Positions 1 through 12,244 of a DNA stretch of 12,244 bases are shown piece by piece. Both the position numbers and the translations under genes were made by a program. The first letter of the stretch is position 1. Every line of letters starts with the position of its first letter. This stretch comes from a virus. Taxonomy: Duplodnaviria; Heunggongvirae; Uroviricota; Caudoviricetes. The stretch lies in the IMG/VR virus record IMGVR_UViG_2681813321_000010, one strand, 5' to 3'. Below the pieces are notes generated by a model, which saw only the letters and a list, made by a program, of their open reading frames with translations, had not been told where the DNA came from and made no database searches.

Positions 1-138
1 TGCCTGGTGCCTCCAGGTGACGTTAACCAGTTAACAATTAACGCCGGATACAGAGAATCCACCCATAACACTGTTTTTGGTTTTAACTGTTCCGCGTGCG
101 CTCAGCCGCATTCACCGCATCACAAAATTCACTTTAAA

Positions 139-193
139 AACGGCGGCAGAGCAGTCACGGAGTAAAACTGATACCGCCAAACGTCACCAGAAA
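139..193 (-). ncRNA. dicF: DicF small RNA, copy 1: an FtsZ-translation-inhibiting sRNA with an intrinsic terminator at its 3' end.
   Basis: The minus-strand sequence is UUUCUGGUGACGUUUGGCGGUAUCAGUUUUACUCCGUGACUGCUCUGCCGCCGUUUUU. This matches my memory of the 53-nt E. coli DicF, apart from a possible 1-nt difference at the 3' end. It lies about 340 nt downstream of ydfC on the same strand, as in K-12 Qin. Confidence 0.8.
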
Positions 194-533
194 ATTGATA
201 ACAGAGGGCGTTGCAGCGGGGTTGTCGCTTAAGCGTATGGTCAACCTGACAACCCGGTGTCCTCAACGGGGAAGGAATAACCCCGCCATACTTACCGCCG
301 CGCCATTTCGCGGAGTGCCACAACCGGAAGCGCACGGTCGACGAAAATTTAACGACAGGCTATCTATGAACCAGCTACCTCGCCGTGCGCTTTCGCGTTA
401 TGGTCTGACTTTTCATGGAAATATCCTTTCAGTAAACTGTCAGTGCCGGATGCTCACCCATGTCCGGCGCACGCACTCCACCTCACCCGTGGAGAACTCC
501 TTAATTACCAACCTTAGCTTCGTTGGTTAGCTA

Positions 534-752
534 TTAACGCGGGTATGTAATCATTCTGGCAATGCTTAATGCCGCTGCTTTTTCCAGCCTGGTGATATCC
601 TGCTCCAGAGCGGACAGATTTTCAGCCTGCTTAGCCCTGGCTTCATTGGCCCATTTCAGATCCTGCGCTGCATTAATTTTCTGGCGCATCCACTCATAAA
701 GTTCATCATCGGTATAGTCTGGCGAGATGATGACGGGTTCTCGTTTCTGCAT
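534..752 (-). CDS. ydfC: YdfC-like small protein (72 aa) from the dicA-ydfABC-dicF operon.
   Basis: 72-aa ORF in the position and with the size of K-12 Qin ydfC, which follows ydfB and precedes dicF. The gene symbol rests on synteny and size, recalled from memory. Confidence 0.65.
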   Translation of the reverse strand: MQKREPVIISPDYTDDELYEWMRQKINAAQDLKWANEARAKQAENLSALEQDITRLEKAAALSIARMITYPR

Positions 753-781
753 ACTGATTCCTCGCGGTGCTGCTTCGCTTA

Positions 782-910
782 TCAGCCGTTAGATTTTGCC
801 GAGCTGGAAAGCGCCTGTTTAAACTCACTGAAGCTGAGAGCTTCTTCGCCTTCGGCAAGGCCTTCGAAGTATTCTTCGTAAGCCTTTTCCATGATTGTGT
901 CGAAATCCAT
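782..910 (-). CDS. ydfB: YdfB-like small protein (42 aa, MDFDTIMEKAYEEYFEGLAEGEEALSFSEFKQALSSSAKSNG).
   Basis: 42-codon ORF below the ORF-track size cut-off, translated by hand. A GGTGAG Shine-Dalgarno sits 5 nt upstream. Its start lies 1 nt from the ydfA stop, a translational-coupling arrangement. Size and synteny match K-12 ydfB. Confidence 0.6.
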   Translation of the reverse strand: MDFDTIMEKAYEEYFEGLAEGEEALSFSEFKQALSSSAKSNG

Positions 911-911
911 A

Positions 912-1067
912 TCACTCACCTGAGTTTCTTTCCAGCCAGCGACGGGCACCATTTTCGGTTTTAAACGTTTTGCTTCTGGTATACGTCATCGCGGTAAACG
1001 TGCCGTCCTGGTTGGGAAACACGCCGTACACCAGAGATTCGTTGTTGCCAAGATCGATAGTATCCAT
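912..1067 (-). CDS. ydfA: YdfA-like small protein (51 aa, MDTIDLGNNESLVYGVFPNQDGTFTAMTYTRSKTFKTENGARRWLERNSGE).
   Basis: An internal ATG preceded by GAGG, giving a 51-aa product that matches K-12 ydfA in length. The ORF-track entry 912..1121 is an N-terminally over-extended version. The gene sits immediately downstream of dicA on the same strand. Confidence 0.65.
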   Translation of the reverse strand: MDTIDLGNNESLVYGVFPNQDGTFTAMTYTRSKTFKTENGARRWLERNSGE

Positions 1068-1147
1068 GCTGACCTCATTTCCCCTTAACGCTGGGGTAGC
1101 GGAACTGTTTGCTGAGAACACCGTGCGGTGTGTTGATGCAAATAAGA

Positions 1148-1199
1148 TTAGCCATGGCTAACATATAGGTCAAGTGATTTTGTATGTTATGGCTAACAT
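1148..1199. promoter_or_regulatory. Operator-like palindromes distal to dicA: TTAGCcatgGCTAA (1148-1161) and ATGTTAtggcTAACAT (1184-1199).
   Basis: Both are exact inverted repeats. The half-site core TTAG(C/T)/(G/A)CTAA recurs in the dicA-dicC intergenic region. Confidence 0.45.
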
Positions 1200-1233
1200 G
1201 ATTGATGTGGTAAAAGATAACTCATTGATGATG

Positions 1234-1641
1234 TTATCTTTTATTTGTCCGCTGACGGGCTTTTAGTAATTCTTCAAAGAGTTTATTGAAGTTTTTTACT
1301 CGAGCTCGCATTTCGGCGAGCTGGGTATCCTGTTCTGATTCTGGCAGTGCATTAAACAGCTCAAGGAGCTCTAGTTCTTTGGGGGATAAGGCAACTGGCT
1401 TCTCAACAGGTGGTGTTGGTTGCTTGTCTTCATCGCCAAATAGAATCCATGTTGGTGAGCATTGCAATACTTTGCTGAGGGCAAAAAGGTTCTTCCCTGT
1501 AGGTTCACTATCATCCCGTTCCCATTGTGATACAGACACATGGGAGATTTTCAGGGCTTTAGCAAGAGACCTTTGGGTGTGTTTGAGGTTTTTCCGACGA
1601 TACCTAATGCGTTCGCCGATAGTTAAATTTTTTGTTTCCAT
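1234..1641 (-). CDS. dicA: DicA repressor. It is an XRE-family HTH protein of 135 aa with no C-terminal S24 autopeptidase domain.
   Basis: The translation METKNLTIGERIRYRRKNLKHTQRSLAKALKISHVSVSQWERDD... is recognised as E. coli DicA. It is transcribed divergently from dicC. Confidence 0.9.
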   Translation of the reverse strand: METKNLTIGERIRYRRKNLKHTQRSLAKALKISHVSVSQWERDDSEPTGKNLFALSKVLQCSPTWILFGDEDKQPTPPVEKPVALSPKELELLELFNALPESEQDTQLAEMRARVKNFNKLFEELLKARQRTNKR

Positions 1642-1643
1642 AG

Positions 1644-1710
1644 TTAGCTAATGCTAAATCGTATTGACTATGTTTTTGTTAACATCTATTTTGTTAGTTA
1701 TGACTAACAA
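1644..1710. promoter_or_regulatory. dicA/dicC divergent control region. Contains palindromes TTAGCtaatGCTAA (1644-1657), TGTTAACA (1674-1681) and the perfect 8+4+8 palindrome TTGTTAGTtatgACTAACAA (1691-1710). Also contains a candidate PdicC: TTGACT (1664-1669), a 17-bp spacer and TATTTT (1687-1692).
   Basis: The inverted repeats and the -35/-10 spacing were read directly from the sequence. The 20-bp palindrome overlaps the -10/+1 of the putative dicC promoter. Confidence 0.5.
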
Positions 1711-1724
1711 TAAAGGTGTTTTAA

Positions 1725-1955
1725 ATGCTTAAAACTGACGCTCTTTTGTATTTCGGTTCAAAAACAAAACTTGCACAAGCAGCAGGTATTCGTTTGGCTT
1801 CGCTTTATAGCTGGAAAGGGGATTTAGTTCCCGAAGGTCGCGCGATGCGTCTACAGGAGGCATCTGGCGGGGAGCTTCAGTATGATCCCAAAGTTTATGA
1901 TGAATATCGTAAGACGAAGCGGGCGGGGCGGTTGAACAATGAAAATCACTCCTGA
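1725..1955 (+). CDS. dicC: DicC, a Cro-like HTH regulator of 76 aa.
   Basis: MLKTDALLYFGSKTKLAQAAGIRLASLYSW... is recognised as DicC. AAAGGTG Shine-Dalgarno upstream. Divergent from dicA. Confidence 0.85.
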   Translation: MLKTDALLYFGSKTKLAQAAGIRLASLYSWKGDLVPEGRAMRLQEASGGELQYDPKVYDEYRKTKRAGRLNNENHS

Positions 1956-2460
1956 ACAGGCTCGTGAGGCTCTGGATGCCTGGATATGTCGACCAGGAAT
2001 GACACAGGAGCAGGCGACGATATTAATCACTGAAGCATTCTGGGCTTTGAAAGAGCGCCCGAACATCGATGTTCAGCGTGTCACAGATGAAGGTGGCGCG
2101 GTTGATCAGCGAGCGCTTGGCGTTAATCGAGTGAAGATATTCGAACGCTGGAAGGCTATCGACACCAGGGATAAGCGTGAAAAGTTCACGGCGCTAGTGC
2201 CTGCGATTATGGAGGCTATCCGGATTAGTGATTTCAGGTTGTATCGTGAGATCAGTGATGGAAAAAGTATTACGTACATGATCGCCGGGTTAAATAAAGA
2301 ATATGGCGATGTGGTGGAATCCGGACTGCTTTTTGCAGATCCTGCCGTTGTAGATCGTGAAACTGACGAACTTATAGAAAAAGCAATTGCTTTCAAGCTT
2401 GCGTATCGACAGCAATACCAACAAAAAGCTGGATGGAATTATGAGTCTTCTTTTTGCTGA
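1939..2460 (+). CDS. ydfX: YdfX-like early-operon protein of 173 aa. It overlaps the dicC stop by 17 nt, which suggests translational coupling. Function unknown; possibly a CII/YdaT-like regulator.
   Basis: Long ORF with a start inside the dicC 3' end, paralogous to 6316..6837. In K-12 a truncated pseudogene, ydfX, directly follows dicC. The symbol rests on that synteny, recalled from memory. Confidence 0.6.
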   Translation: MKITPEQAREALDAWICRPGMTQEQATILITEAFWALKERPNIDVQRVTDEGGAVDQRALGVNRVKIFERWKAIDTRDKREKFTALVPAIMEAIRISDFRLYREISDGKSITYMIAGLNKEYGDVVESGLLFADPAVVDRETDELIEKAIAFKLAYRQQYQQKAGWNYESSFC

Positions 2461-3406
2461 ACGCCCACTGGTTATAAACACGCAGCTGGCAATGAAAATT
2501 GGCTTAAACGAAGCCATTGTTTTGCAACAACTGCACTACTGGTTGAGAGATACCAACTCCGGCATGGAATGTGATGGTGTTCGCTGGATTTATAACACAA
2601 CGGAACAATGGCTGGAACAGTTCCCATTCTGGTCAGAGTCAACGTTAAAGCGCGCGTTTGCAAGTCTGAAAACGCTGGGGCTTTTGCGTTGTGAAAAGCT
2701 CAATAAATCAAAGCGCGATATGACCAATTTCTACACGATCAACTACGGGAGCGAGCTTTTAGATGGTGGCAAATTGAGCGAATCCATCGGTTTAAAATGC
2801 GCCGCTCCATCAGGTCAAAATGACACGATGGAAGAGGTCAAAATGAAACGCTCCATTGGTTCAAAACGACTCAATGTCATCGGGTCAAAATGGCCTGATG
2901 ATCTTACAGAGAATACAACAGAGATTACTACAGAGAATAAAAAGACTTCTCGTCCGGAAGCTTCGCAACCGGACCCGCAGACGGTTGAACAGGATTTTTT
3001 AACCCGACACCCTGACGCGGTTGTGTTCAGTGCGAAAAAACGCCAGTGGGGCAGCCAGGAAGATTTGGCGTGTGCGCAGTGGATCTGGGGGCGAATCGTG
3101 AGTCTTTACGAGCAGGCCGCCAGCGATGATGGCGAGATTTCGCGACCGAAAGAACCCAACTGGACCGCATGGGCCAACGACGTGCGCACAATGCGGATGC
3201 TGGATGGCAGAACTCACAGACAAATTTGTGAAATGTTTGGTCGGGTGCAGCGGGATCCATTCTGGGTAAAAAATATCATGAGTCCGTCAAAGCTTCGCGA
3301 AAAATGGGATGAACTGGTTATCCGCCTGGGGCGTTCGTCTGTACAGCGTTGTGTGAATCATATTTCTGAGCCGGATACCGAAATTCCGCCGGGCTTCAGG
3401 GGGTAA
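2441..3406 (+). CDS. Lambda-O-like replication initiator or replisome organizer (321 aa from ATG 2441). Its N-terminal domain is winged-helix-like, a low-complexity linker is encoded by the iteron array, and a C-terminal domain follows.
   Basis: The ORF track gives a TTG start at 2387, but the ATG at 2441 overlaps the upstream stop by 20 nt and is the likelier start. The N-terminus LVINTQLAMKIGLNEAIVLQQLHYWL is typical of phage replication initiators. The in-gene iterons plus the AT-rich tract mirror the ori inside lambda gene O. Confidence 0.7.
   Translation: MSLLFAERPLVINTQLAMKIGLNEAIVLQQLHYWLRDTNSGMECDGVRWIYNTTEQWLEQFPFWSESTLKRAFASLKTLGLLRCEKLNKSKRDMTNFYTINYGSELLDGGKLSESIGLKCAAPSGQNDTMEEVKMKRSIGSKRLNVIGSKWPDDLTENTTEITTENKKTSRPEASQPDPQTVEQDFLTRHPDAVVFSAKKRQWGSQEDLACAQWIWGRIVSLYEQAASDDGEISRPKEPNWTAWANDVRTMRMLDGRTHRQICEMFGRVQRDPFWVKNIMSPSKLREKWDELVIRLGRSSVQRCVNHISEPDTEIPPGFRG
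2789..2950. repeat. ori-like iteron array inside the O-like gene. Five GGT(C/T)(A/T)AAA(T/C)G repeats with 22-25 bp periodicity (starts 2789, 2813, 2836, 2858, 2883), followed by an AT-rich ACAGAGAATA-repeat tract (2901-2950).
   Basis: Counted directly from the sequence. The encoded protein shows the matching repeats GQN/SIGSKR/VIGSKW. Confidence 0.6.
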
Positions 3407-3446
3407 GTGTTAATTTCTGGTCATGAGGTAATTTTCAGGAGGGCTT

Positions 3447-3869
3447 GTGGCAAAAGTTTTTACACAAGAAGAGCGGGAAAAAATTAAAGGGCAGGTTGTT
3501 GAACTCGTACGCCGGAGTGGGCGTGAGACGTTACGGCAACTGGAAGTCAAGACAGGTGCGACAAGATATCTGATGAGCGTTCTCGCAAGAGAGCTGGTTG
3601 CCAGCGGCGATGTATACAACTCTGGTTACGGGTTATTCCCGTCTGAACAGGCGCGTAAGGACTGGCAAAATGCCCGTAAAAAGCTCTCAAGGGCAAAGCT
3701 GAAGGAACCATCTGCGGTTGATCCGGACCTTATCTGGTCATTACCTGACGGAGAAATACGTCGCTACGACAGGCGTCAGAACATAATCTGTCGCGAGTGC
3801 CGGAAGAGTGAAGTTATGCAGCGCATACTAGCATTCTATCAGGGAAATGCTCGATATTTATTGAAGTGA
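3447..3869 (+). CDS. Conserved 140-aa protein downstream of the O-like gene. GTG start; function unknown. It occupies the position where a helicase loader (P/DnaC-like) would be expected.
   Basis: AGGAGGG Shine-Dalgarno 6 nt upstream of the GTG. Paralogue 7824..8231 is about 90% identical. Basic C-terminus with a single CxxC. Confidence 0.6.
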   Translation: MAKVFTQEEREKIKGQVVELVRRSGRETLRQLEVKTGATRYLMSVLARELVASGDVYNSGYGLFPSEQARKDWQNARKKLSRAKLKEPSAVDPDLIWSLPDGEIRRYDRRQNIICRECRKSEVMQRILAFYQGNARYLLK

Positions 3870-4121
3870 TGAGATTAAAGTTTATTAGTTCAGATATTGA
3901 TTGGCTCTTTTGTGGAGTAGGGTAGAGTTAGTGTGTTTGTCTGCTTGGTGCCAGCAGCGGATATGTTTAACAACAGAAAGCATTCAGCATGGTTAGTGGA
4001 TTTGCAAAGTGGATTAGGATTTGAGAAACTTTGATGAAGTTGTAAAGCTTGTTTCTATAAAAATAGAAATTTAACTAATAGTTAAACACACCTCCAGCTT
4101 CATTGAAAAGGATTATTAGCT

Positions 4122-4547
4122 ATGATTGATCCACTTATTAGAAACTTACAGAGTGATATTGCACTACTCCAGCTTTATATCGCGCAACGCAAACAGGCAG
4201 GCTTTCATGACATGGAAAGAATAATTGAGTCATTGACCATCTTTATGTTTCGCGCGCTGAAAATGGGTGAACTGGTAAACATGAATCAGATTAAAGTTAA
4301 TTTTCCCGCCATTGATTTAGCTGATAATAAAAACATGATAGCAGTTCAAGTTACTACGAATGCAAGTCCAGCAAAAATTAAAAAAACTATCGAATCTTTT
4401 GAGAAAATAAATGAAATAGGAGAGAGTCTGAAAGATAAATACTCTACTTTATATATTTTTGGTTTTAACTGTTCCGCGTGCGCTCAGCCGCATTCACCGC
4501 ATCACAAAATTCACTTTAAAAACGGCGGCAGAGCAGTCACGGAGTAA
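4122..4547 (+). CDS. AT-rich 141-aa ORF, possibly a truncated or chimeric N-terminal domain of an abortive-infection-type protein. It tentatively resembles a SMEK-type N-terminal domain. The last ~30 codons are encoded by the direct repeat.
   Basis: AAGGA Shine-Dalgarno 9 nt upstream. GC content is visibly far below the flanking sequence. The region from 4456 onward is shared with 74-165, where a different upstream reading frame fuses to the same tail FGFNCSACAQPHSPHHKIHFKNGGRAVTE. The stop codon lies inside the DicF copy-2 terminator on the opposite strand. Confidence 0.5.
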   Translation: MIDPLIRNLQSDIALLQLYIAQRKQAGFHDMERIIESLTIFMFRALKMGELVNMNQIKVNFPAIDLADNKNMIAVQVTTNASPAKIKKTIESFEKINEIGESLKDKYSTLYIFGFNCSACAQPHSPHHKIHFKNGGRAVTE

Positions 4548-4575
4548 AACTGATACCGCCAAACGTCACCAGAAA
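4521..4575 (-). ncRNA. dicF: DicF small RNA, copy 2. Identical to copy 1.
   Basis: Same sequence as 139-193, offset 4382. Confidence 0.8.
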
Positions 4576-4915
4576 ATTGATAACAGAGGGCGTTGCAGCG
4601 GGGTTGTCGCTTAAGCGTATGGTCAACCTGACAACCCGGTGTCCTCAACGGGGAAGGAATAACCCCGCCATACTTACCGCCGCGCCATTTCGCGGAGTGC
4701 CACAACCGGAAGCGCACGGTCGACGAAAATTTAACGACAGGCTATCTATGAACCAGCTACCTCGCCGTGCGCTTTCGCGTTATGGTCTGACTTTTCATGG
4801 AAATATCCTTTCAGTAAACTGTCAGTGCCGGATGCTCACCCATGTCCGGCGCACGCACTCCACCTCACCCGTGGAGAACTCCTTAATTACCAACCTTAGC
4901 TTCGTTGGTTAGCTA

Positions 4916-5134
4916 TTAACGCGGGTATGTAATCATTCTGGCAATGCTTAATGCCGCTGCTTTTTCCAGCCTGGTGATATCCTGCTCCAGAGCGGACAGA
5001 TTTTCAGCCTGCTTAGCCCTGGCTTCATTGGCCCATTTCAGATCCTGCGCTGCATTAATTTTCTGGCGCATCCACTCATAAAGTTCATCATCGGTATAGT
5101 CTGGCGAGATGATGACGGGTTCTCGTTTCTGCAT
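4916..5134 (-). CDS. ydfC: YdfC-like protein, copy 2. Identical to copy 1.
   Basis: Identical translation to 534..752. Confidence 0.65.
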   Translation of the reverse strand: MQKREPVIISPDYTDDELYEWMRQKINAAQDLKWANEARAKQAENLSALEQDITRLEKAAALSIARMITYPR

Positions 5135-5163
5135 ACTGATTCCTCGCGGTGCTGCTTCGCTTA

Positions 5164-5292
5164 TCAGCCGTTAGATTTTGCCGAGCTGGAAAGCGCCTGT
5201 TTAAACTCACTGAAGCTGAGAGCTTCTTCGCCTTCGGCAAGGCCTTCGAAGTATTCTTCGTAAGCCTTTTCCATGATTGTGTCGAAATCCAT
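5164..5292 (-). CDS. ydfB: YdfB-like 42-aa protein, copy 2.
   Basis: Offset copy of 782..910. Confidence 0.6.
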   Translation of the reverse strand: MDFDTIMEKAYEEYFEGLAEGEEALSFSEFKQALSSSAKSNG

Positions 5293-5293
5293 A

Positions 5294-5449
5294 TCACTCA
5301 CCTGAGTTTCTTTCCAGCCAGCGACGGGCACCATTTTCGGTTTTAAACGTTTTGCTTCTGGTATACGTCATCGCGGTAAACGTGCCGTCCTGGTTGGGAA
5401 ACACGCCGCATACCAGAGATTCGTTGTTGCCAAGATCGATAGTATTCAT
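5294..5449 (-). CDS. ydfA: YdfA-like 51-aa protein, copy 2 (D2N and Y14C relative to copy 1).
   Basis: Offset copy of 912..1067. The two amino-acid differences fall in the substitution cluster near the repeat boundary. Confidence 0.65.
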   Translation of the reverse strand: MNTIDLGNNESLVCGVFPNQDGTFTAMTYTRSKTFKTENGARRWLERNSGE

Positions 5450-5561
5450 GCTGACCTCATTTCCCCTTAACGCCGGGGTAGCGGAACTGTTTGCTGAGAA
5501 CACCGTGCGGTGTCTTGGTGGAGATTAATTTAGAATAACCTAACAAATGTAGCAAGTATTT

Positions 5562-5581
5562 TTGTTAGATTGGTCTAACAA
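5562..5581. promoter_or_regulatory. Operator-like 8+4+8 palindrome TTGTTAGAttggTCTAACAA distal to dicA'. An additional CCTAACAA half-site lies at 5539-5546.
   Basis: Exact inverted repeat. It has the same architecture as the module-A sites but different specificity positions (GA/TC instead of GT/AC). Confidence 0.45.
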
Positions 5582-5616
5582 AAAGAGTGAGGGAATCTAA
5601 GTATCTGAAAGGAGTG

Positions 5617-6024
5617 TTATTTTATTGATTTGTTTTTACGTGCTTTAAGCATTTCTTCGAAGAGTTTATTGAAATTCTCTACTCTTGCGCGCATTTCAGA
5701 CAGTAAGGCTTCCTGCTCGGAGGAGGGAAGAGCATCGAATAATTCGATCAATTCTTTGTGGCTGGGAGTTAACTCGGTTTCCACATGAAGTTCTTGTGCT
5801 GGCACTGGTGCCTTGTCTTCGTCACCAAACATTAGCCATGTAGGCGAGCACTTCAGCGCATCAGCTAAAGCAAATAACCGCTTCCCGACCGGTTGGGTTT
5901 CGTCTCTTTCCCATTGTGAAATTGTGACGTGAGCTACCCCAGCGAGGCGTGCAGCTTCTCGTTGTGTTAGGCGTAATTCTTTTCGTCGTGCCAGAACTCG
6001 CTGGCCTAGGGTTCTTGTATCCAT
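5617..6024 (-). CDS. Second, hetero-immune DicA-type repressor (135 aa). It has a different HTH recognition region and is about 55% identical to DicA.
   Basis: MDTRTLGQRVLARRKELRLTQREAARLAGVAHVTISQWERDE... shows the same domain layout and C-terminal half as DicA. The N-terminal DNA-binding half is substituted. Confidence 0.85.
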   Translation of the reverse strand: MDTRTLGQRVLARRKELRLTQREAARLAGVAHVTISQWERDETQPVGKRLFALADALKCSPTWLMFGDEDKAPVPAQELHVETELTPSHKELIELFDALPSSEQEALLSEMRARVENFNKLFEEMLKARKNKSIK

Positions 6025-6047
6025 AGTTAGGTAATTCTAATTTTTCT

Positions 6048-6092
6048 TGACTTAGGTATCCCGCGCACATTACTGTTAGGAATATCTAACAA
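6048..6092. promoter_or_regulatory. dicA'/dicC' control region. Contains a candidate -35 TTGACT (6048-6053) and the imperfect 8+4+8 palindrome cTGTTAGGaataTCTAACAa (6073-6092), directly upstream of the dicC' GAGGGGG Shine-Dalgarno.
   Basis: Read from the sequence. 6 of 8 arm positions are complementary. Confidence 0.4.
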
Positions 6093-6104
6093 GAGGGGGC
6101 TTTG

Positions 6105-6332
6105 ATGCTTAAAGTTGACGCAATTACTTTTTTTGGCAGCAAAACAAAACTTGCCAATGCCGCAGGAGTGAAACTGGCAAGTGTTGCTGCATGGGGGGAA
6201 CTGGTTCCTGAAGGTCGCGCGATGCGCCTGCAAGAGGCATCCGGCGGGGAACTTCAGTACGACCCCAAAGTTTATGACGAATATCGTAAGGCAAAGCGGG
6301 CGGGGCGGTTGAACAATGAAAATCACCCCTGA
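6105..6332 (+). CDS. Second DicC/Cro-like regulator (75 aa from the ATG at 6105). Its N-terminal HTH is diverged and its C-terminal half is identical to DicC.
   Basis: GAGGGGG Shine-Dalgarno. The ORF-track start at 6102 is a TTG one codon upstream. Confidence 0.8.
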   Translation: MLKVDAITFFGSKTKLANAAGVKLASVAAWGELVPEGRAMRLQEASGGELQYDPKVYDEYRKAKRAGRLNNENHP

Positions 6333-6837
6333 ACAGGTTTGTGAGGCTCTGGATGCCTGGGTATGCCGACCAGGAATGACACAGGAGCAGGCGACGATAT
6401 TAATCACGGAAGCATTCTGGGCTCTGAAAGAACGCCCGAACATCGATGTTCAACGCGTCACGTTTAATGATGGCGAGGTTGATCAACGGGCGTTGGGCGT
6501 TAACCGGGTGAAGATATTCGAACGCTGGAAAGCTATCGACACCAGGGATAAGCGGGAAAAATTCACGGCGCTGATTCCGGCAATTATGGAGGCTATCCGG
6601 ATCAGCGATTTCAGGTTGTATTGTGAAATTACTGACGGAAAAAGCATTACGTACATGATCGCCGGGTTAAACAAAGAATATGGTGATGTGGTGGAGTCCG
6701 GGCTGCTTTTTGCGGATCCATCTGTTGTGGAACGTGAGACTGACGAGCTTATAGAAAAAGCTATTGCTTTCAAGCATGCGTATCGTCAGCAATACCAACA
6801 AAAAGCTGGATGGAATTATGAGCCTTCTTTTTGCTGA
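6316..6837 (+). CDS. ydfX: YdfX-like 173-aa protein, module B. It overlaps the dicC' stop by 17 nt, as in module A.
   Basis: About 90% identical to 1939..2460. Confidence 0.6.
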   Translation: MKITPEQVCEALDAWVCRPGMTQEQATILITEAFWALKERPNIDVQRVTFNDGEVDQRALGVNRVKIFERWKAIDTRDKREKFTALIPAIMEAIRISDFRLYCEITDGKSITYMIAGLNKEYGDVVESGLLFADPSVVERETDELIEKAIAFKHAYRQQYQQKAGWNYEPSFC

Positions 6838-7783
6838 ACGCCCACTGGTTATAAACACACAGCTTGCGATGAAGATTGGCTTAAATGAAGCCATTGTGTT
6901 GCAGCAGTTGCATTACTGGTTGAGAGATACCAGTTCCGGTATGGAATGTGACGGGGTTCGCTGGATTTATAACACAACAGAACAATGGCTGGAACAGTTC
7001 CCGTTCTGGTCAGAGTCAACGTTAAAACGCGCATTTGCAAGTCTGAAAACGCTGGGGCTTTTGCGTTGCGAAAAGCTCAACAAATCAAAGCGTGATATGA
7101 CTAATTTTTACACGATTAATTACGAGAGTGAGCTTTTAGATGGTGGCAAAGTGAGCGAATCCATCAGGTCAAAATGCGCCGCTCCATCGGGTCAAAATGA
7201 CACGATGGAAGAGGTCAAAATGGCACGCTCCATTGGTTCAAAACGACCCAATGTCATCGGGTCAAAATGGCCTGATGATCTTACAGAGAATACAACAGAG
7301 ATTACTACAGAGAATAAAAACACTTCTCGTCCGGAAGCTTCGCAACCGGACCCGCAGACGGCTGAACAGGATTTTTTAACCCGACACCCTGACGCGGTTG
7401 TGTTCAGTGCGAAAAAACGCCAGTGGGGAAGTCAGGAAGATTTGGCGTGCGCACAGTGGATCTGGGGACGAATCGTGAGTCTTTACGAGCAGGCTGCCAG
7501 CGATGATGGCGAGATCACGCGACCGAAAGAACCAAACTGGACCGCATGGGCCAATGACGTGCGCACAATGCGGATGCTGGATGGCAGAAGCCACAGACAA
7601 ATTTGCGAAATGTTTGGTCGGGTACAGCGAGATCCATTCTGGGTAAAAAACATCATGAGCCCGTCAAAGCTTCGCGAAAAATGGGACGACCTGGTCATCC
7701 GCCTGGGGCGTTCACCTGTACAGTGTTGTGTGAATCATATTTCTGAACCGGATACCGAAATTCCGCCTGGTTTCAGGGGATAA
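6818..7783 (+). CDS. O-like replication initiator, module B (321 aa from ATG 6818).
   Basis: Paralogue of 2441..3406 with the same overlapping start context. Confidence 0.7.
   Translation: MSLLFAERPLVINTQLAMKIGLNEAIVLQQLHYWLRDTSSGMECDGVRWIYNTTEQWLEQFPFWSESTLKRAFASLKTLGLLRCEKLNKSKRDMTNFYTINYESELLDGGKVSESIRSKCAAPSGQNDTMEEVKMARSIGSKRPNVIGSKWPDDLTENTTEITTENKNTSRPEASQPDPQTAEQDFLTRHPDAVVFSAKKRQWGSQEDLACAQWIWGRIVSLYEQAASDDGEITRPKEPNWTAWANDVRTMRMLDGRSHRQICEMFGRVQRDPFWVKNIMSPSKLREKWDDLVIRLGRSPVQCCVNHISEPDTEIPPGFRG
7167..7327. repeat. ori-like iteron array, module B. Five GGT(C/T)CAAAA(T/C)G repeats (starts 7167, 7190, 7213, 7235, 7260) followed by an AT-rich ACAGAGAATA tract.
   Basis: Counted directly. 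Same periodicity as module A. Confidence 0.6.
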
Positions 7784-7823
7784 GTGGTGATTTTAGGGCA
7801 TAAAGTAATGTTCAGGAGGACTT

Positions 7824-8231
7824 ATGGCAAAAGTATTTACACAGGAAGAGCGGGAAAAAATTAAAGGACAGGTGGTGGAACTCGTGCGCCAGAGCGGTCG
7901 TGAGACGTTACGGCAACTGGAAGCTAAAACAGGTGCGACAAGATATCTGATGAGCGTTCTTGCCAGAGAGCTGGTTGCCAGTGGTGATGTATATCACTCT
8001 GGCTATGGGGTGTTCCCGTCAGAACGGGCTCGTAAGGACTGGCAAAACGCCCGCAAAAAACTCTCGAGGGCAAAGGTGAAGAAACCTGTTGTGGTTGATC
8101 CGGGCCTTATCTGGACATTACCCGACGGAGAAATACGCCGCTACGACAGGCGTATGAACATAATCTGTCGCGAGTGCCGGAAGAGCGAAGTTATGCAGCG
8201 TGTATTGGCGTTCTATCAGGGATATGCCTAG
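7824..8231 (+). CDS. Conserved 135-aa protein downstream of the O-like gene, module B.
   Basis: AGGAGGA Shine-Dalgarno. Paralogue of 3447..3869 with a shorter C-terminus. Confidence 0.6.
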   Translation: MAKVFTQEEREKIKGQVVELVRQSGRETLRQLEAKTGATRYLMSVLARELVASGDVYHSGYGVFPSERARKDWQNARKKLSRAKVKKPVVVDPGLIWTLPDGEIRRYDRRMNIICRECRKSEVMQRVLAFYQGYA

Positions 8232-8277
8232 AATTGTCACAGGTAATGAAATTAAAGAGTATTGGTTCGGATATGAA

Positions 8278-8307
8278 TTGACATTTTCGCGGCACAGAGC
8301 TAAAAAT
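8278..8307 (+). promoter_or_regulatory. Candidate sigma70 promoter at the start of the AT-rich island: TTGACA (8278-8283), a 17-bp spacer and TAAAAAT.
   Basis: Consensus -35 with canonical spacing, read from the sequence. It would give a ~300-nt leader before the SIR2-family ORF. Confidence 0.3.
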
Positions 8308-8599
8308 AGCCTACTTGTTGGTTTTGTGTGAAAAGCAGACATTTTGAGGCTCAGGATTTGTTATCAAATAAGACCAATACTTATCTATATTAATACACAT
8401 TAAATACTGTGCAATACATTATTGCATTTTATTAGATAAGCGATATTTAGGGAAAAGAAAAGTCATAGAAAACAGGCCGCTATTTGTTGTTGGATTTTAT
8501 AGGCTATATCTAGATTATCTTGCCACTGCGGTCTCTGTTTACCTAACAGCTTGGGCTTCTTTGCATGCAAGTTTGTAATAACAAGAGTAATCAAACGGA

Positions 8600-9631
8600 A
8601 TGTCTATTAATCCTAAACTTAAGCGTATCGCGCGACGCTATCCAGCGTTATTCCAATATGAGTCCCCCTATATGGCAAGAAAATTAATAATATTCGGCAA
8701 CGGTCTCGGTATGGCTTTAGATCCTGCTCACTTCTCCTTAGACAGAGCGTTGGAAGAAATTTGGCATCGCCCCAATTTTTTAAAAGATATCCACAAGCAA
8801 CTTATCGAGCGTTGTCTTCAGCGGCAAGGTCCACCAGAAGGAGAACATGAGTTGGATACCCTTCACCAGGCTGTCACATATTGTAAAGCTCTTGCTCAAA
8901 TTGGAGAGGGGAACGTGCATTGGCTTACTGAAGATGGACTAAACTTCCCCAAAATTACCGCCACTTATATTCACAAAGTTGCAACCAGGTTGCATAATTA
9001 CGATAAAGGTTTGCCACAAAGATTCGAAAATGCGCTTGTGGAGTTTGTAAAGAACACACACTCACATATCGCGACATTAAACTATGACAAATTATTATAC
9101 AATTCATTCATAGATAATGATATATTCAACGGGTATGATGGGGTTTTAGTTGATGGGATGCTAAGCCACGGATTTTCCTCTGCAGCGCTCGAACGGAAAT
9201 ACAATCGTAGGTTTGGTTATTATTTGCACTTGCATGGTTCACCACTATTTATTAATCAGCATGAAAATGTTTTAAAACTTTCACGCTCACAACTTACTCT
9301 TGACATAGATGAACCTAGTGAGCATATAGTGTTAACTCATATAAAAAGAAAACCGTCAGTTATAGCAGCATCTAATGTTCTTTCTACGTACTGGGATTAT
9401 TTGCAGTTTGCATTATTTGAATCAGAAGAAATAATATTGTTTGGTTACTCTGGTCTCGATATTCACCTTAACCTGCTTATTCGACCTTACCTAACCTCTA
9501 AGCCTTTAAGAGTAATTGAGTGGAGCGGTGCTGGTGAACAAAACGCTCGTGAGATATATTGGAAAAACCAGTTGAGACGGGAAGTTACTGTAATTAGGTT
9601 GGATAACATCACTGATTTTATTGATTGGTAG
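8600..9631 (+). CDS. Stand-alone SIR2-family (SIR2_2/ThsA-like NAD+-hydrolase fold) protein of 343 aa in an AT-rich island. Candidate anti-phage defence effector.
   Basis: Motifs seen in the translation: LIIFGNGLGMAL (Rossmann-like N-terminal loop), IATLNYD (the TTNYD-type catalytic Asn motif), YLHLHGS (catalytic His motif) and ILFGYSGLD (the FxGYSxxD motif). GC content is clearly lower than in the flanking phage genes. No SLOG, TIR, STAND or HerA partner is encoded nearby. Confidence 0.75.
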   Translation: MSINPKLKRIARRYPALFQYESPYMARKLIIFGNGLGMALDPAHFSLDRALEEIWHRPNFLKDIHKQLIERCLQRQGPPEGEHELDTLHQAVTYCKALAQIGEGNVHWLTEDGLNFPKITATYIHKVATRLHNYDKGLPQRFENALVEFVKNTHSHIATLNYDKLLYNSFIDNDIFNGYDGVLVDGMLSHGFSSAALERKYNRRFGYYLHLHGSPLFINQHENVLKLSRSQLTLDIDEPSEHIVLTHIKRKPSVIAASNVLSTYWDYLQFALFESEEIILFGYSGLDIHLNLLIRPYLTSKPLRVIEWSGAGEQNAREIYWKNQLRREVTVIRLDNITDFIDW

Positions 9632-9701
9632 CGCAATGCGAAGTTAAAGAGGCAGCCTCATATTTATCAGAGCTGGTGTACGTCCAATACAGGAGGTTAT
9701 C

Positions 9702-9791
9702 GTGCTGGTTCTCAAATGCGCGCTGGCTATTGCGGCTGTAGTGGCAATTTATTGTCTTGCTATTGTTCTTATGGATCGCCTTTCTGATTGA
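9702..9791 (+). CDS. Putative 29-aa hydrophobic single-TM peptide (MLVLKCALAIAAVVAIYCLAIVLMDRLSD). GTG start.
   Basis: Consensus AGGAGG 7 nt upstream of the GTG. The product has uniform hydrophobic composition and charged ends. It was not in the ORF track because it is below the size cut-off. Confidence 0.35.
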   Translation: MLVLKCALAIAAVVAIYCLAIVLMDRLSD

Positions 9792-10002
9792 TTTTATATT
9801 GGCGAGGTGACGGGAGTTAAGTAGAATTGCTGCGGGTGCTTGAGGCTGTCTGCCTCGGGCATGCCACCGTAAGGCAGACAGAGAAAAGCCCCAGTTAACA
9901 TTACGCGTCCTGCAAGACGCTTAACATTAATCTGAGGCCCAATCTATGCTTCACAAACGTAGGTTAGCCTCTTACGCGCCGAAAGGCAAGGAGAAGCAGG
10001 CT

Positions 10003-10158
10003 ATGAAGCAGCAAAAGGCGATGTTAATCGCCCTGATCGTCATCTGTTTAACCGTCATAGTGACGGCACTGGTAACGAGGAAAGACCTCTGCGAGGTACG
10101 AATCCGAACCGGCCAGACGGAGGTCGCTGTCTTCACAGCTTACGAACCTGAGGAGTAA
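10003..10158 (+). CDS. hokD: HokD (RelF), a Hok/Gef-family type I toxin of 51 aa. An in-frame upstream start at 9946 gives a 70-codon mok-like reading frame.
   Basis: MKQQKAMLIALIVICLTVIVTALVTRKDLCEVRIRTGQTEVAVFTAYEPEE is recognised as the Hok family and specifically HokD. AAGGAG Shine-Dalgarno. The leader contains a 10-bp-stem hairpin (9846-9881) typical of hok mRNAs. Confidence 0.85.
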   Translation: MKQQKAMLIALIVICLTVIVTALVTRKDLCEVRIRTGQTEVAVFTAYEPEE

Positions 10159-10226
10159 GAGACCAGGCGGGGGAGAAATCCCTCGCCACCGCTGATGTGT
10201 CAGGCATCCTCAACGCACCCGCACTT

Positions 10227-10258
10227 AACCCGCTTCGGCGGGTTTTTGTTTTTATTTT
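10227..10258 (+). terminator. Rho-independent terminator of the hokD transcript.
   Basis: CCCGC-TTCG-GCGGG stem-loop followed by TTTTTGTTTTTATTTT. Confidence 0.8.
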
Positions 10259-10374
10259 CAACGCATTTGAAGTTCTGGACGGTGTCGGAATAGAATCAAA
10301 AATACTTAAGTAGCGCGCAGGGATAAGAGGGATGGTCCCTTAAAGGGGAGAGCTAATTATCCGGAAGGATTCTG

Positions 10375-10626
10375 ATGATGAACATCGAAGAACTGCGTAA
10401 AATTTTTTGTGAAGATGGCCTCTATGCTGTGTGCGTTGAAAATGGAAATATTGTTAGTCATTACCGCATTGTGTGTTTGCGAAAGAATGGGGCTGCGTTA
10501 ATTAATTTTGTGGATGGTCGAGTGACAGACGGATTTATCTTGCGCGAAGGTGAGTTTGTCACTTCATTACAGGCACTGAAAGAGATCGGAATAAAAGCTG
10601 GCTTTTCTGCTTTTTCAGAAGAATAA
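10375..10626 (+). CDS. rem: Rem-like 83-aa protein.
   Basis: Size and position (between hokD and ydfU) match K-12 Qin rem. GGAAGG Shine-Dalgarno. The symbol rests on synteny and length, recalled from memory. Confidence 0.6.
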   Translation: MMNIEELRKIFCEDGLYAVCVENGNIVSHYRIVCLRKNGAALINFVDGRVTDGFILREGEFVTSLQALKEIGIKAGFSAFSEE

Positions 10627-10692
10627 ACTCATCTACAATCTTGCGCGGGGCTGAACTCCCGCTGAGTAACACCGTGCCGCCGGAGGAAACCG

Positions 10693-10971
10693 ATGGCACG
10701 CAACGCAAAATATTACAATCATGATAATTCGACCGTTCTTGCCCACACGCACGAGCGGTATTCTCACGCATTTAAGTCAGACTGGTACCAGCATCCCCCA
10801 TGCACTGAAGAACAGGCCGAATGGCTCATTCAGTGTTACCGCAGGCGCGGATGCGAGGTTAAAAAAGCCCTTAGCCTCGACTACCGTCACTGGATAATCT
10901 CCGTCGGGCTTCCTTACTCCGAACGCCCACCGCGTCTGTCCCGCACATTCCAGCAACGCATCTGGAGGTAA
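10693..10971 (+). CDS. Hypothetical 92-aa protein, translationally coupled to the downstream DUF968 gene.
   Basis: GGAGGA Shine-Dalgarno 5 nt upstream. The stop lies 1 nt before the next gene's start. Confidence 0.55.
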   Translation: MARNAKYYNHDNSTVLAHTHERYSHAFKSDWYQHPPCTEEQAEWLIQCYRRRGCEVKKALSLDYRHWIISVGLPYSERPPRLSRTFQQRIWR

Positions 10972-10972
10972 C

Positions 10973-12022
10973 GTGCGGGTATTACTTCGACCTGTTCTGG
11001 TACCGGAACTCGGGCTGGTGGTCCTTAAGCCCGGTCGCGAATCACTGCCGGTTTTTCATTGCGGCAGGGTGCTGGTGGAGCCGGAACCGAAAAGCATGCG
11101 CGGTCTGCCGTCCGGAGTCGTCCCTGCCGTTCGCCAGCCGCTGGCGGAGGATAAATCATTACTGCCATTTTTCAGCGATGAGCGTGTGATTCGTGCTGCT
11201 GGCGGCGCTGGCGCACTGTCTGACTGGCTCCTGCGTCATGTCAAATCCTGCCAGTGGCCTCATGGTGACTACCATCACAGTGAAACCGTCATACATCGTT
11301 ATGGTACCGGCGCAATGGTGTTGTGCTGGCACTGCGACAACCAGCTGCGCGACCAGACCTCCGAATCACTCGGGCAACTTGCTCACCAAAACCTGTCTGC
11401 ATGGATGATTGACGTCATACGCCATGCAATGAATGGCTCGCAGGAACGGGAATTATCGCTGGCTGAATTATCCTGGTGGGCGATCCGCAATCAGGTGGCG
11501 GACGCGCTACCGGAAGCGGTATTACGTCGTTCGCTGGGGTTGCGTGCGGAAAAAATCCGCTCAATGTACCGTGAAAGCGACATCGTACCGGGAGAGCAGA
11601 CCGCCACCAGCATACTGAAACAGCGCACAAAAAATCTTGCGCCGCTGCCTCACGCCCACCAGCAACAGAACCCGCCACAGGAAAAGACGGTGGTCAGCAT
11701 TGCTGTTGATCCGGAGTCTCCGGAATCTTTAATGAAGCGACCTAAACGTCGCCGTTGGGTAAATGAGAAATATACGCGCTGGGTAAAGACACAGCCGTGT
11801 GCGTGTTGTGGTAAGCCAGCCGACGATCCCCATCACCTGATTGGTCATGGTCAGGGCGGAATAGGGACAAAAGCCCACGATATTTTCACGCTACCGTTGT
11901 GCCGGGAGCATCACAACGAACTTCATGCTGATCCGCTGGCATTTGAAGAAAAGCATGGTTCCCAGATTGATTTAATTTTTCGTTTTCTTGATCGCGCCTT
12001 TGCAACCGGCGTGCTCGGGTAA
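10973..12022 (+). CDS. ydfU: DUF968-family lambdoid protein (YdfU/YdaW-like, 349 aa) with a C-terminal Cys/His-rich HNH-like motif.
   Basis: C-terminus CACCGKPADDPHHLIGHGQGG...LCREHHNELH. GGAGG Shine-Dalgarno before the GTG. Length and synteny with rem and hokD match Qin ydfU. Confidence 0.75.
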   Translation: MRVLLRPVLVPELGLVVLKPGRESLPVFHCGRVLVEPEPKSMRGLPSGVVPAVRQPLAEDKSLLPFFSDERVIRAAGGAGALSDWLLRHVKSCQWPHGDYHHSETVIHRYGTGAMVLCWHCDNQLRDQTSESLGQLAHQNLSAWMIDVIRHAMNGSQERELSLAELSWWAIRNQVADALPEAVLRRSLGLRAEKIRSMYRESDIVPGEQTATSILKQRTKNLAPLPHAHQQQNPPQEKTVVSIAVDPESPESLMKRPKRRRWVNEKYTRWVKTQPCACCGKPADDPHHLIGHGQGGIGTKAHDIFTLPLCREHHNELHADPLAFEEKHGSQIDLIFRFLDRAFATGVLG

Positions 12023-12034
12023 AAGAGGTTACTG

Positions 12035-12244
12035 ATGCGTATAGAGTTTGTTTTGCCTTACCCGCCGACGGTGAACACCTACTGGCGACGTCGTGGCAGC
12101 ACATATTTTGTGTCAAAAGCCGGTGAGCGTTATCGCCGGGATGTGGCACTTATTGTTCGCCAGCAGCGGCTGAAATTAAACCTGTCCGGAAGGCTGGCGA
12201 TAAAGATTATTGCAGAGCCACCGGATAAGCGCCGCCGCGACCTG
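12035..12244 (+). CDS. rusA: RusA-family Holliday-junction resolvase, 5' partial. It runs off the window end.
   Basis: LPYPPTVNTYW...YRRDVALIV...IKIIAEPPDKRRRDL matches the RusA pattern, including the PDxRRRDLDN motif. AAGAGG Shine-Dalgarno. Confidence 0.8.
   Translation, partial: MRIEFVLPYPPTVNTYWRRRGSTYFVSKAGERYRRDVALIVRQQRLKLNLSGRLAIKIIAEPPDKRRRDL

Follow-up and report, generated by a model that had tools for sequence, protein, structure and literature searches.

Two DicF genes in tandem early regions

The DNA analyzed here, referred to as the window, is a stretch of 12,244 nucleotides (nt) from the IMG/VR virus record IMGVR_UViG_2681813321_000010 (Caudoviricetes), in which two genes for DicF, a small RNA (sRNA) known to inhibit cell division, lie in tandem copies of a lambdoid prophage early region. 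The whole window was searched with the Rfam covariance model RF00039, which has a gathering score of 48 bits. Two matches above this score were obtained on the minus strand, at 141-192 and at 4523-4574, each reaching 72.5 bits (E = 9e-15) and covering model positions 1-52 of 52. A preliminary description of the window had placed two identical copies at 139-193 and 4521-4575, and the covariance model agrees with this to within 2 nt. The genes occupy 141-193 (copy 1) and 4523-4575 (copy 2) on the minus strand. They are identical to each other and share 52 of 53 bases with the 53-nt DicF of Escherichia coli K-12, the sole change being the final base (C53G). The 5' part of DicF pairs with xylR and the 3' part with ftsZ and pykA (PMC5069750); both regions are as in K-12 in either copy. 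A terminator can be read in both copies, consisting of a hairpin formed by GGCGGUAUCAG and CUGCUCUGCCGCC, then G and UUUUU. A simple scan of the window for consensus promoters and terminators, with a loop limit too small for the DicF terminator, flagged neither this terminator nor the leftward promoters; therefore, both were read by eye and are designated putative.

The 5' end of DicF arises by RNase E cleavage of a polycistronic transcript, the 53-nt form ends at a Rho-independent terminator, and a 72-nt form is released by RNase III from full-length dicBF mRNA (PMC5069750, citing Faubladier 1990). Both copies in the window are preceded by ydfA, ydfB, ydfC and a spacer, an order that would match the layout of the polycistronic precursor. 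From the ydfC stop codon to DicF this spacer measures 340 nt at both copies (194-533 and 4576-4915, minus strand), as the preliminary description had estimated and equal to the length in K-12. The spacer of copy 1 is 97.5% identical to that of K-12, and the same identity was found over the 775 bases from ydfC to the dicB leader.

A different spacing was observed in several related prophages with an S24-peptidase CI repressor (L006, L007, L010, L012-L014: 10534-11528), where ydfC and DicF are about 993 nt apart instead of 340 and extra called open reading frames (ORFs) of 133 and 92 amino acids (aa) lie between them. In prophage L009 they are about 700 nt apart, with a single additional ORF (124 aa) in between. 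The spacer that precedes DicF is thus itself a variable insertion site.

Both DicF genes belong to a direct repeat of 74-3903 and 4456-8280, with 87% identity and a period of 4382 bp, which spans the entire immunity and replication module. The repeat opens with 953 bp that are the same base for base (74-1026 and 4456-5408), and the first mismatch occurs at 1027. Its unit is the full early region of a Qin/Rac-like lambdoid prophage: the minus strand carries dicF, the spacer, ydfC, ydfB, ydfA (DUF1391) and a 135-aa helix-turn-helix repressor, and the plus strand a Cro-like gene, a YdaT-family gene, an O-like replication gene and DUF977. We refer to 74-4455, containing DicA and DicC, as module A and to the sequence from 4456 onward as module B.

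In module A, ydfC (534-752), ydfB (782-910) and ydfA/DUF1391 (912-1067) fill 534-1067 of the minus strand; they were recognized as ORFs, from the RefSeq annotation of the identical parent, and by Pfam (DUF1391, 1e-27). The DicA repressor of K-12 type follows at 1234-1641 (minus strand; Pfam HTH_3, 1e-15) and is annotated as dicA (WP_000448563.1) in the parent that is identical over 1003-4466. Rightward operon A (1725-3869, plus strand) comprises DicC/Cro (1725-1955), the YdaT-family gene (1939-2460), the O-like replication gene (2441-3406) and DUF977 (3447-3869). In module B the 340-nt spacer, ydfC (4916-5134), ydfB (5164-5292) and ydfA (5294-5449) extend over 4576-5449 on the minus strand and are 100% identical to the parental prophage L001 described below. 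The module B repressor (5617-6024, minus strand; 135 aa, HTH_3) is 58% identical to DicA, and the Cro protein of rightward operon B is 83% identical to DicC. This operon (6105-8231, plus strand) consists of Cro (6105-6332), the YdaT-family gene (6316-6837), the O-like gene (6818-7783) and DUF977 (7824-8231).

Repressor and cro genes are divergent in both modules, with palindromes between them and at the leftward promoter, and the Pfam domains HTH_3 and P22_Cro were found in both. Palindromes of the form TTAG-N6-CTAA are located at 1148, 1644 and 1694 in module A (region 1148-1707) and at 5530, 5565, 6027 and 6076 in module B (region 5530-6089). Putative leftward promoter A (1145-1173, minus strand; -35 TTGACC, -10 TAATCT), overlapped by the operator TTAGCCATGGCTAA, is equivalent in position to dicBp of K-12 and would drive ydfABC, DicF copy 1 and dicB. 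Putative leftward promoter B (5527-5555, minus strand; -35 TTGCTA, -10 TAAATT), overlapped by the operator TTAGGTTATTCTAA, would drive ydfABC and DicF copy 2. Repressor, Cro, operators and replication genes are intact in both modules. The operators differ mainly at position 5 of the half-site, which reads TTAGY in module A and TTAGR in module B. Judged from these sequences, the two immunities are likely to be of different specificity. The two repressors were also seen to differ in the region of the recognition helix.

The window as a mosaic of two prophages

Parental sequences were searched for in 5,426 complete E. coli genomes. Three prophages served for comparison: L001, a B-type prophage located by yccA in E. 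coli O111:H2 strain 12A (NZ_CP077479.1, 3,363,514-3,381,375); L002, an A-type Qin-like DicA/DicC prophage at tRNA-Ser/mtfA in strain FDAARGOS_1059; and L003, a further A-type prophage. The window proved to be an exact-string mosaic of three pieces from two lambdoid prophages, with no other differences. Window 1-1026 equals L001 5001-6026 (B-type), window 1003-4466 equals the corresponding sequence of L002 (A-type), and window 4456-12244 equals L001 5074-12862 (B-type). The A-type copy of strain 12A itself appears to be about one base off window 1003-4466 (6,348 versus 6,353 bits). Strains 12A and FDAARGOS_1059 each contain both the A and the B parent, inverted relative to each other and separated by about 1.2 Mb. 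Furthermore, 321 complete genomes carry window 1-4466 without interruption, followed past 4466 by the remainder of a full-length SMEK-domain gene, and 12A holds the single-module B version, in which position 73 is directly joined to position 74.

Junction 1 is a 24-nt interval of shared identity inside ydfA (1003-1026), where B-type sequence changes to A-type, as defined by the exact matches to L001 and L002 and by diagnostic sites. On these matches it is a homologous crossover inside ydfA. The YdfA protein of module A is chimeric in translation, with D2 and Y14 of A-type and R31 of B-type. The chimeric YdfA was considered as a unique marker of the hybrid and rejected, because the protein is widespread (417 blocks). 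A tandem module was seen at none of the 10 places listed, and these loci served as controls.

Junction 2 was located by three-way comparison in the 11-nt microhomology TTTTTGGTTTT at 4456-4466, where approximately codon 115 of the SMEK-domain gene is joined to a site 57-67 nt 3' of dicF. TTTTTGGTTTT is one of only three 11-mers, none longer, common to the 3.6-kb A cargo and the 4-kb B early-left regions. The position of junction 2 at one of the three longest parental matches therefore points to a microhomology-mediated join and not to a random chimera.

The truncated SMEK-domain gene forms a 141-aa ORF (4122-4547, plus strand) composed of codons 1-115 of 299 and 26 read-through codons, which run antisense over DicF copy 2. 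Residues 9-114 match Pfam SMEK_N (1.1e-22) over profile positions 2-102 of 140 only. The full-length gene of 299 codons is present in L002 and L003, and homology to it stops at 4466. The region 3870-4455 has a G+C content of 34%, as compared to 49-51% in its flanks. Comparison with the A-type parents identifies this AT-rich DNA beside copy 2 as the cargo that normally occupies the right-hand side of module A, cut at junction 2.

The C53G allele of DicF (positions 141 and 4523, the last base on the minus strand) was observed as a marker of the B-type block. The block of 231 bases that bears it is found at 100% identity in enteropathogenic E. coli (EPEC) E2348/69 and a handful of genomes, and 64 records reach at least 99%; the large majority of records match it at only 95-99%. 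The last base of DicF is C in all three other sequences compared base by base, namely K-12 and two A-type prophages.

The 3' context of the two DicF copies and dicB

DicF copy 1 is followed by a 67-nt 3' flank (74-140, minus strand) that comprises the U-run of the terminator and the proximal arm of a long-range stem, and this flank is duplicated without any change at 4456-4522 behind copy 2. The distal DicF-dicB spacer (1-73, minus strand) is present at copy 1 only. It is identical to L001 5001-5073 and to the corresponding sequences of L002 and L003, in which it leads to dicB. All three have dicB starting 35 nt past the base that corresponds to position 1; the gene is annotated at L001 4778-4966, and L001 equals the window over 1-1026. 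The distance from DicF to dicB is 175 nt in the parental prophages as compared to 174 nt in K-12. By analogy with the identical parents, dicB would lie beside copy 1, outside the window.

At copy 2, homology to the canonical spacer stops 67 nt after DicF, and this copy consists of the whole DicF gene with its precursor spacer and terminator and is without dicB. Neither a DicB-like ORF nor a tblastn match to two DicB proteins was detected anywhere in the window, the best tblastn alignment (E = 0.35) falling at an unrelated place. The absence of a DicB-like ORF 3' of copy 2 (3870-4520), as previously noted, was thus borne out by the ORF list and by tblastn.

A GGAGG on the minus strand (complement of 10-14) had been taken in the preliminary description as the mark of a gene starting beyond position 1. 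The motif is present and dicB does begin 35 nt further on in the parents; as a ribosome-binding site, however, GGAGG does not hold, being located about 44 nt before the dicB ATG in the three homologous prophages and in K-12. The ribosome-binding site of dicB, as read from the sequence, is the GAGGA directly before the ATG, not GGAGG, which is part of a small predicted hairpin, CCUGGAGGCACCAGG.

The bases just 3' of DicF, including the U-run, are predicted to pair over about 24 bp with the dicB leader, including its ribosome-binding site. Folding of this long-range stem gave z = -5.07 for 12A (L001 4965-5140, minus strand) and z = -4.86 for K-12 (L004 3936-4112, plus strand). Its proximal arm is located at window 113-140 and 4495-4522, and the distal arm belonging to copy 1 lies beyond the window edge. 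The 3' context of copy 2 contains the proximal arm alone, and its fold is not significant (z = 0.16). The stem is the probable RNase III site behind the 72-nt DicF, and its predicted position fits the +19 RNase III end. Folding also suggests that RNase III cleavage of the stem may control dicB translation. In read-through transcripts the stem would hide the dicB ribosome-binding site. Copy 2 appears to retain the known needs of the 53-nt DicF, which are the upstream spacer for 5' processing by RNase E, the hairpin and the U-run. Because it is without the distal stem arm, copy 2 should yield only the 53-nt terminated DicF and no dicB.

Distribution of DicF loci and of junction 2

Of the 5,426 complete E. 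coli genomes, 4,571 carry the DicF block, which was counted at 10,908 places in all, with a median of 2 and a maximum of 10 per genome; 12A and FDAARGOS_1059 have four copies each. Furthermore, 133 other DicF loci were compared (120 from IMG/VR and 13 others), of which 125 had sufficient flanking sequence. A second DicF in the same locus was found in none of the 133. In 120 of the 125 loci dicB is located about 176 nt downstream of DicF, and the five exceptions retain the canonical flank for more than 120 nt.

Junction 2 was absent by megablast from the complete E. coli genomes and from 50,697 GenBank phage records, and as an exact 35-50-mer it was present in no other record of IMG/VR, the GTDB representative genomes and the JGI metagenomes. 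Exact-sequence lookup of the 141-aa fusion ORF in gene catalogues returned no record. Multiple DicF copies per genome are therefore ordinary; the tandem architecture that gives a second copy devoid of dicB is unusual and apparently unique.

Proposed origin of the hybrid prophage

Microhomology-mediated template switching and homology-facilitated illegitimate recombination are known classes of events, and the window combines one homologous with one microhomology junction. We regard it as probable that the window records a real in vivo rearrangement, in which a B-type prophage took in a block of an A prophage and thereby acquired tandem modules and a second DicF. The most likely cause is a recent template switch or ectopic recombination, an assembly artefact being less likely.

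A lambdoid prophage with B immunity, located by yccA in close relatives, would have gained a copy of a 3.44-kb block from a co-resident A prophage. This block would comprise the 5' part of ydfA, dicA, dicC, the ydaT-family gene, the O-like replication gene, DUF977 and codons 1-115 of the SMEK-domain gene. The A template would have been entered by homologous exchange in ydfA (1003-1026) and the B template regained through the 11-nt microhomology (4456-4466) 57-67 nt 3' of dicF, by a template switch or by homology-facilitated illegitimate recombination. Since every diagnostic site in the two outer flanks is B-type, the A block would have been copied in non-reciprocally. The point of re-entry into B lies upstream of the point of exit, so that 929-953 bp of B would have been copied twice, a segment that runs from the dicF 3' flank through dicF, the 340-nt spacer, ydfC and ydfB into the 3' part of ydfA. 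The product is a tandem pair of immunity and replication modules with two perfect DicF genes 4,382 bp apart. No extra substitution has occurred since the joining, which argues for a very recent event. That mosaicism can arise by recombination between resident prophages is well established (PMC3945230).

The duplicated block starts 57-67 nt past dicF (4456-4466), and thus dicB was never included. The preliminary description had stated that the second module kept the sRNA arm of the division-inhibition cassette and lost the protein arm. As a description this is correct, DicF being present without dicB; the notion of a loss has to be abandoned, as the block never held dicB.

Two other routes were rejected. 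Campbell-type integration of a circle derived from the A prophage alone predicts A-type alleles in 74-1002 of the second repeat copy, and both copies are B-type at every diagnostic site. A single reciprocal crossover between the prophages does not agree with a left flank (103-1002) that is B-type and not A-type, nor with parents that are inverted relative to each other.

An artefact would require that the isolate has two ordinary prophages and that the B-A-B path stems from chimeric reads or from a misresolved near-identical repeat of about 1 kb shared by DicF prophages. We consider this unlikely. In its favor, the structure is unique among all collections searched, each segment matches a parental prophage at 100% identity, leaving nothing independent to date the event, and the closest relatives of the isolate, 12A and FDAARGOS_1059, have four DicF blocks each, which are hard ground for assemblers. 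However, two separate mis-joins would be required, because both outer flanks are B-type at the diagnostic sites. The 11-nt overlap at junction 2 is too short for a de Bruijn edge or a long-read overlap, and it coincides with maximal microhomology, unlike the joints of random ligation chimeras. Furthermore, a perfect 953-bp repeat in one contig at a distance of 4.4 kb implies spanning long reads.

Selection for a dual-immunity design, in which the hybrid was kept for split control of the inhibitors, for DicF dosage or for double immunity, is compatible with the favored origin by template switching or recombination but is in itself improbable. The integrity of both modules and the host-beneficial roles reported for DicF and DicB (PMC5069750) would speak for it. 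The structure is known from one sequence only, though, zero substitutions since the event leave no time for visible selection, and in the parental lineage the resident A prophage already supplies A immunity.

The preliminary description had assumed two full division-inhibition cassettes, with an AT-rich insertion replacing dicB at copy 2. AT-rich DNA does adjoin copy 2 and dicB is absent 3' of it; replacement, on the other hand, is very improbable, as this DNA is a truncated SMEK-domain gene ending at a recombination junction. In hundreds of genomes an identical, collinear sequence forms the normal right end of module A; in the window it stops in the middle of a gene at the microhomology. Neither the distal spacer nor dicB nor ydfD has left a trace in 3870-4455, and the B sequence of the unrearranged parent continues directly into dicB. 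Ordinary tandem duplication of one module with later divergence of the immunity region, which the direct repeat of period 4382 bp opening with 953 identical bp might recall, can practically be dismissed, because each of the diverged parts (87% identity overall, 58% for the repressor proteins) matches a different extant prophage at 100% identity, and divergence in place cannot recreate two existing sequences and yet spare 953 bp.

Functional consequences

If the rearrangement is real, inactivation of DicA would switch on DicF copy 1 and dicB, which would stand behind the DicA-controlled leftward promoter. The leftward operon under the B repressor would close with DicF copy 2 and the Rho-independent terminator of this copy, and inactivation of the B repressor would lead to its expression. 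Transcripts reading through copy 2 would be antisense to the SMEK fragment and the replication genes of module A. We propose only tentatively, and rate as rather unlikely in its full form, that by one homologous and one microhomology template switch the prophage gained a second immunity and replication module, probably of other specificity, and thereby uncoupled two division inhibitors, DicF alone responding to repressor B and DicF together with DicB to DicA. If so, DicF dosage and the 53-nt and 72-nt forms would be genetically separable in a natural strain.

Several points weigh against these interpretations. Junction 2 occurs in no other record of the collections searched; therefore, the structure rests on a single assembly. 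The left flank lies outside the window, and the location by yccA and the presence of dicB are deduced from relatives. Given the common TTAG-N6-CTAA architecture, each repressor may also act on the operators of the other module. The promoters, the specificity of the operators, the efficiency of the terminator and the dependence on RNase III are deduced from sequence, folding and literature.

Replication genes, cargo and right-hand region

The 321-aa O-like protein (2441-3406 and 6818-7783, plus strand) is named phage replication protein O in one RefSeq record and hypothetical in most, and a Pfam search of the O-like proteins gave no match. The hybrid would hold two O-like genes and presumably two origins.

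To the right of module B are located a SIR2-like gene, hok/sok, rem, DUF968 and rusA. The hok/sok-type locus, a type I toxin-antitoxin system, extends over 9834-10158 (plus strand), with an Rfam sok match of 116 bits at 9834-10008; hokD (10003-10158) is nested in a longer mok-like ORF (9946-10158). Between DUF977 and hokD lies a slot for variable AT-rich cargo (window 3870-4455 and 8232-9640; L002 8873-11448; prophages L005-L014). The A-type prophage carries there the SMEK-domain gene, an S-adenosylmethionine (SAM) methyltransferase gene and a hypothetical gene, and the B-type prophage the SIR2-like gene (Pfam SIR2_2, 1e-5). Other prophages have in this slot an NgoMIV-type restriction-modification pair, QueH, HAD and NUDIX genes, a Beta_protein gene or a RelBE-type pair. 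PADLOC gave only weak matches for the SIR2-like and SMEK proteins (SIR2 and PDC-S21 for the SIR2-like protein). The slot looks like a hotspot for defense genes.

Significance and comparison with known systems

DicF, DicB and the Qin-type operon are well characterized, and the finding of DicF alone adds nothing new; the window presents a well-known system in a one-off structural variant. Its unusual part is the tandem of full modules; both parents were identified at 100% identity, and the breakpoints could be narrowed to 24 nt and 11 nt. If the event is real, it would provide a clean natural record of non-reciprocal template switching that makes new prophage combinations, and toxic dicB would have been rewired from one repressor to another. 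Furthermore, a natural operon end with DicF only would help to separate the effects of DicF from those of DicB, and termination from RNase III processing. The case also advises caution, as a repeated sRNA beside seemingly foreign DNA may signal a duplication junction and not a gene replacement.

The closest known system is the dicBF operon of the K-12 prophage Qin (dicA/dicC, ydfA-ydfB-ydfC-dicF-dicB-ydfD), which resembles the window in gene order, in the 340-nt spacer and in 52 of 53 bases of DicF; the annotations of DicA and DicC in module A agree with the K-12 Qin names. Unlike Qin, the window has the left-operon block twice in one prophage, and its copy 2 lies under another repressor (58% identical to DicA) and is without dicB and the distal spacer. 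The B-type prophage by yccA in strain 12A is 100% identical over window 1-1026 and 4456-12244, and its right side is alike (SIR2-like gene, hok/sok, rem, DUF968, rusA); however, it has one module with one DicF followed by dicB and is without the 4,382 extra bases of the window. Genomes with multiple dicBF loci, such as those of O157:H7 Sakai and EDL933 (PMC5069750), contain several identical or near-identical DicF genes, as is the case here. Their copies reside in separate prophages and are normally each accompanied by dicB, whereas in the window both are found in one prophage and one is without dicB. Mosaicism between resident or defective prophages (PMC3945230) likewise involves a related donor and recipient in the same cell, but the window represents the addition of a module instead of a module swap.

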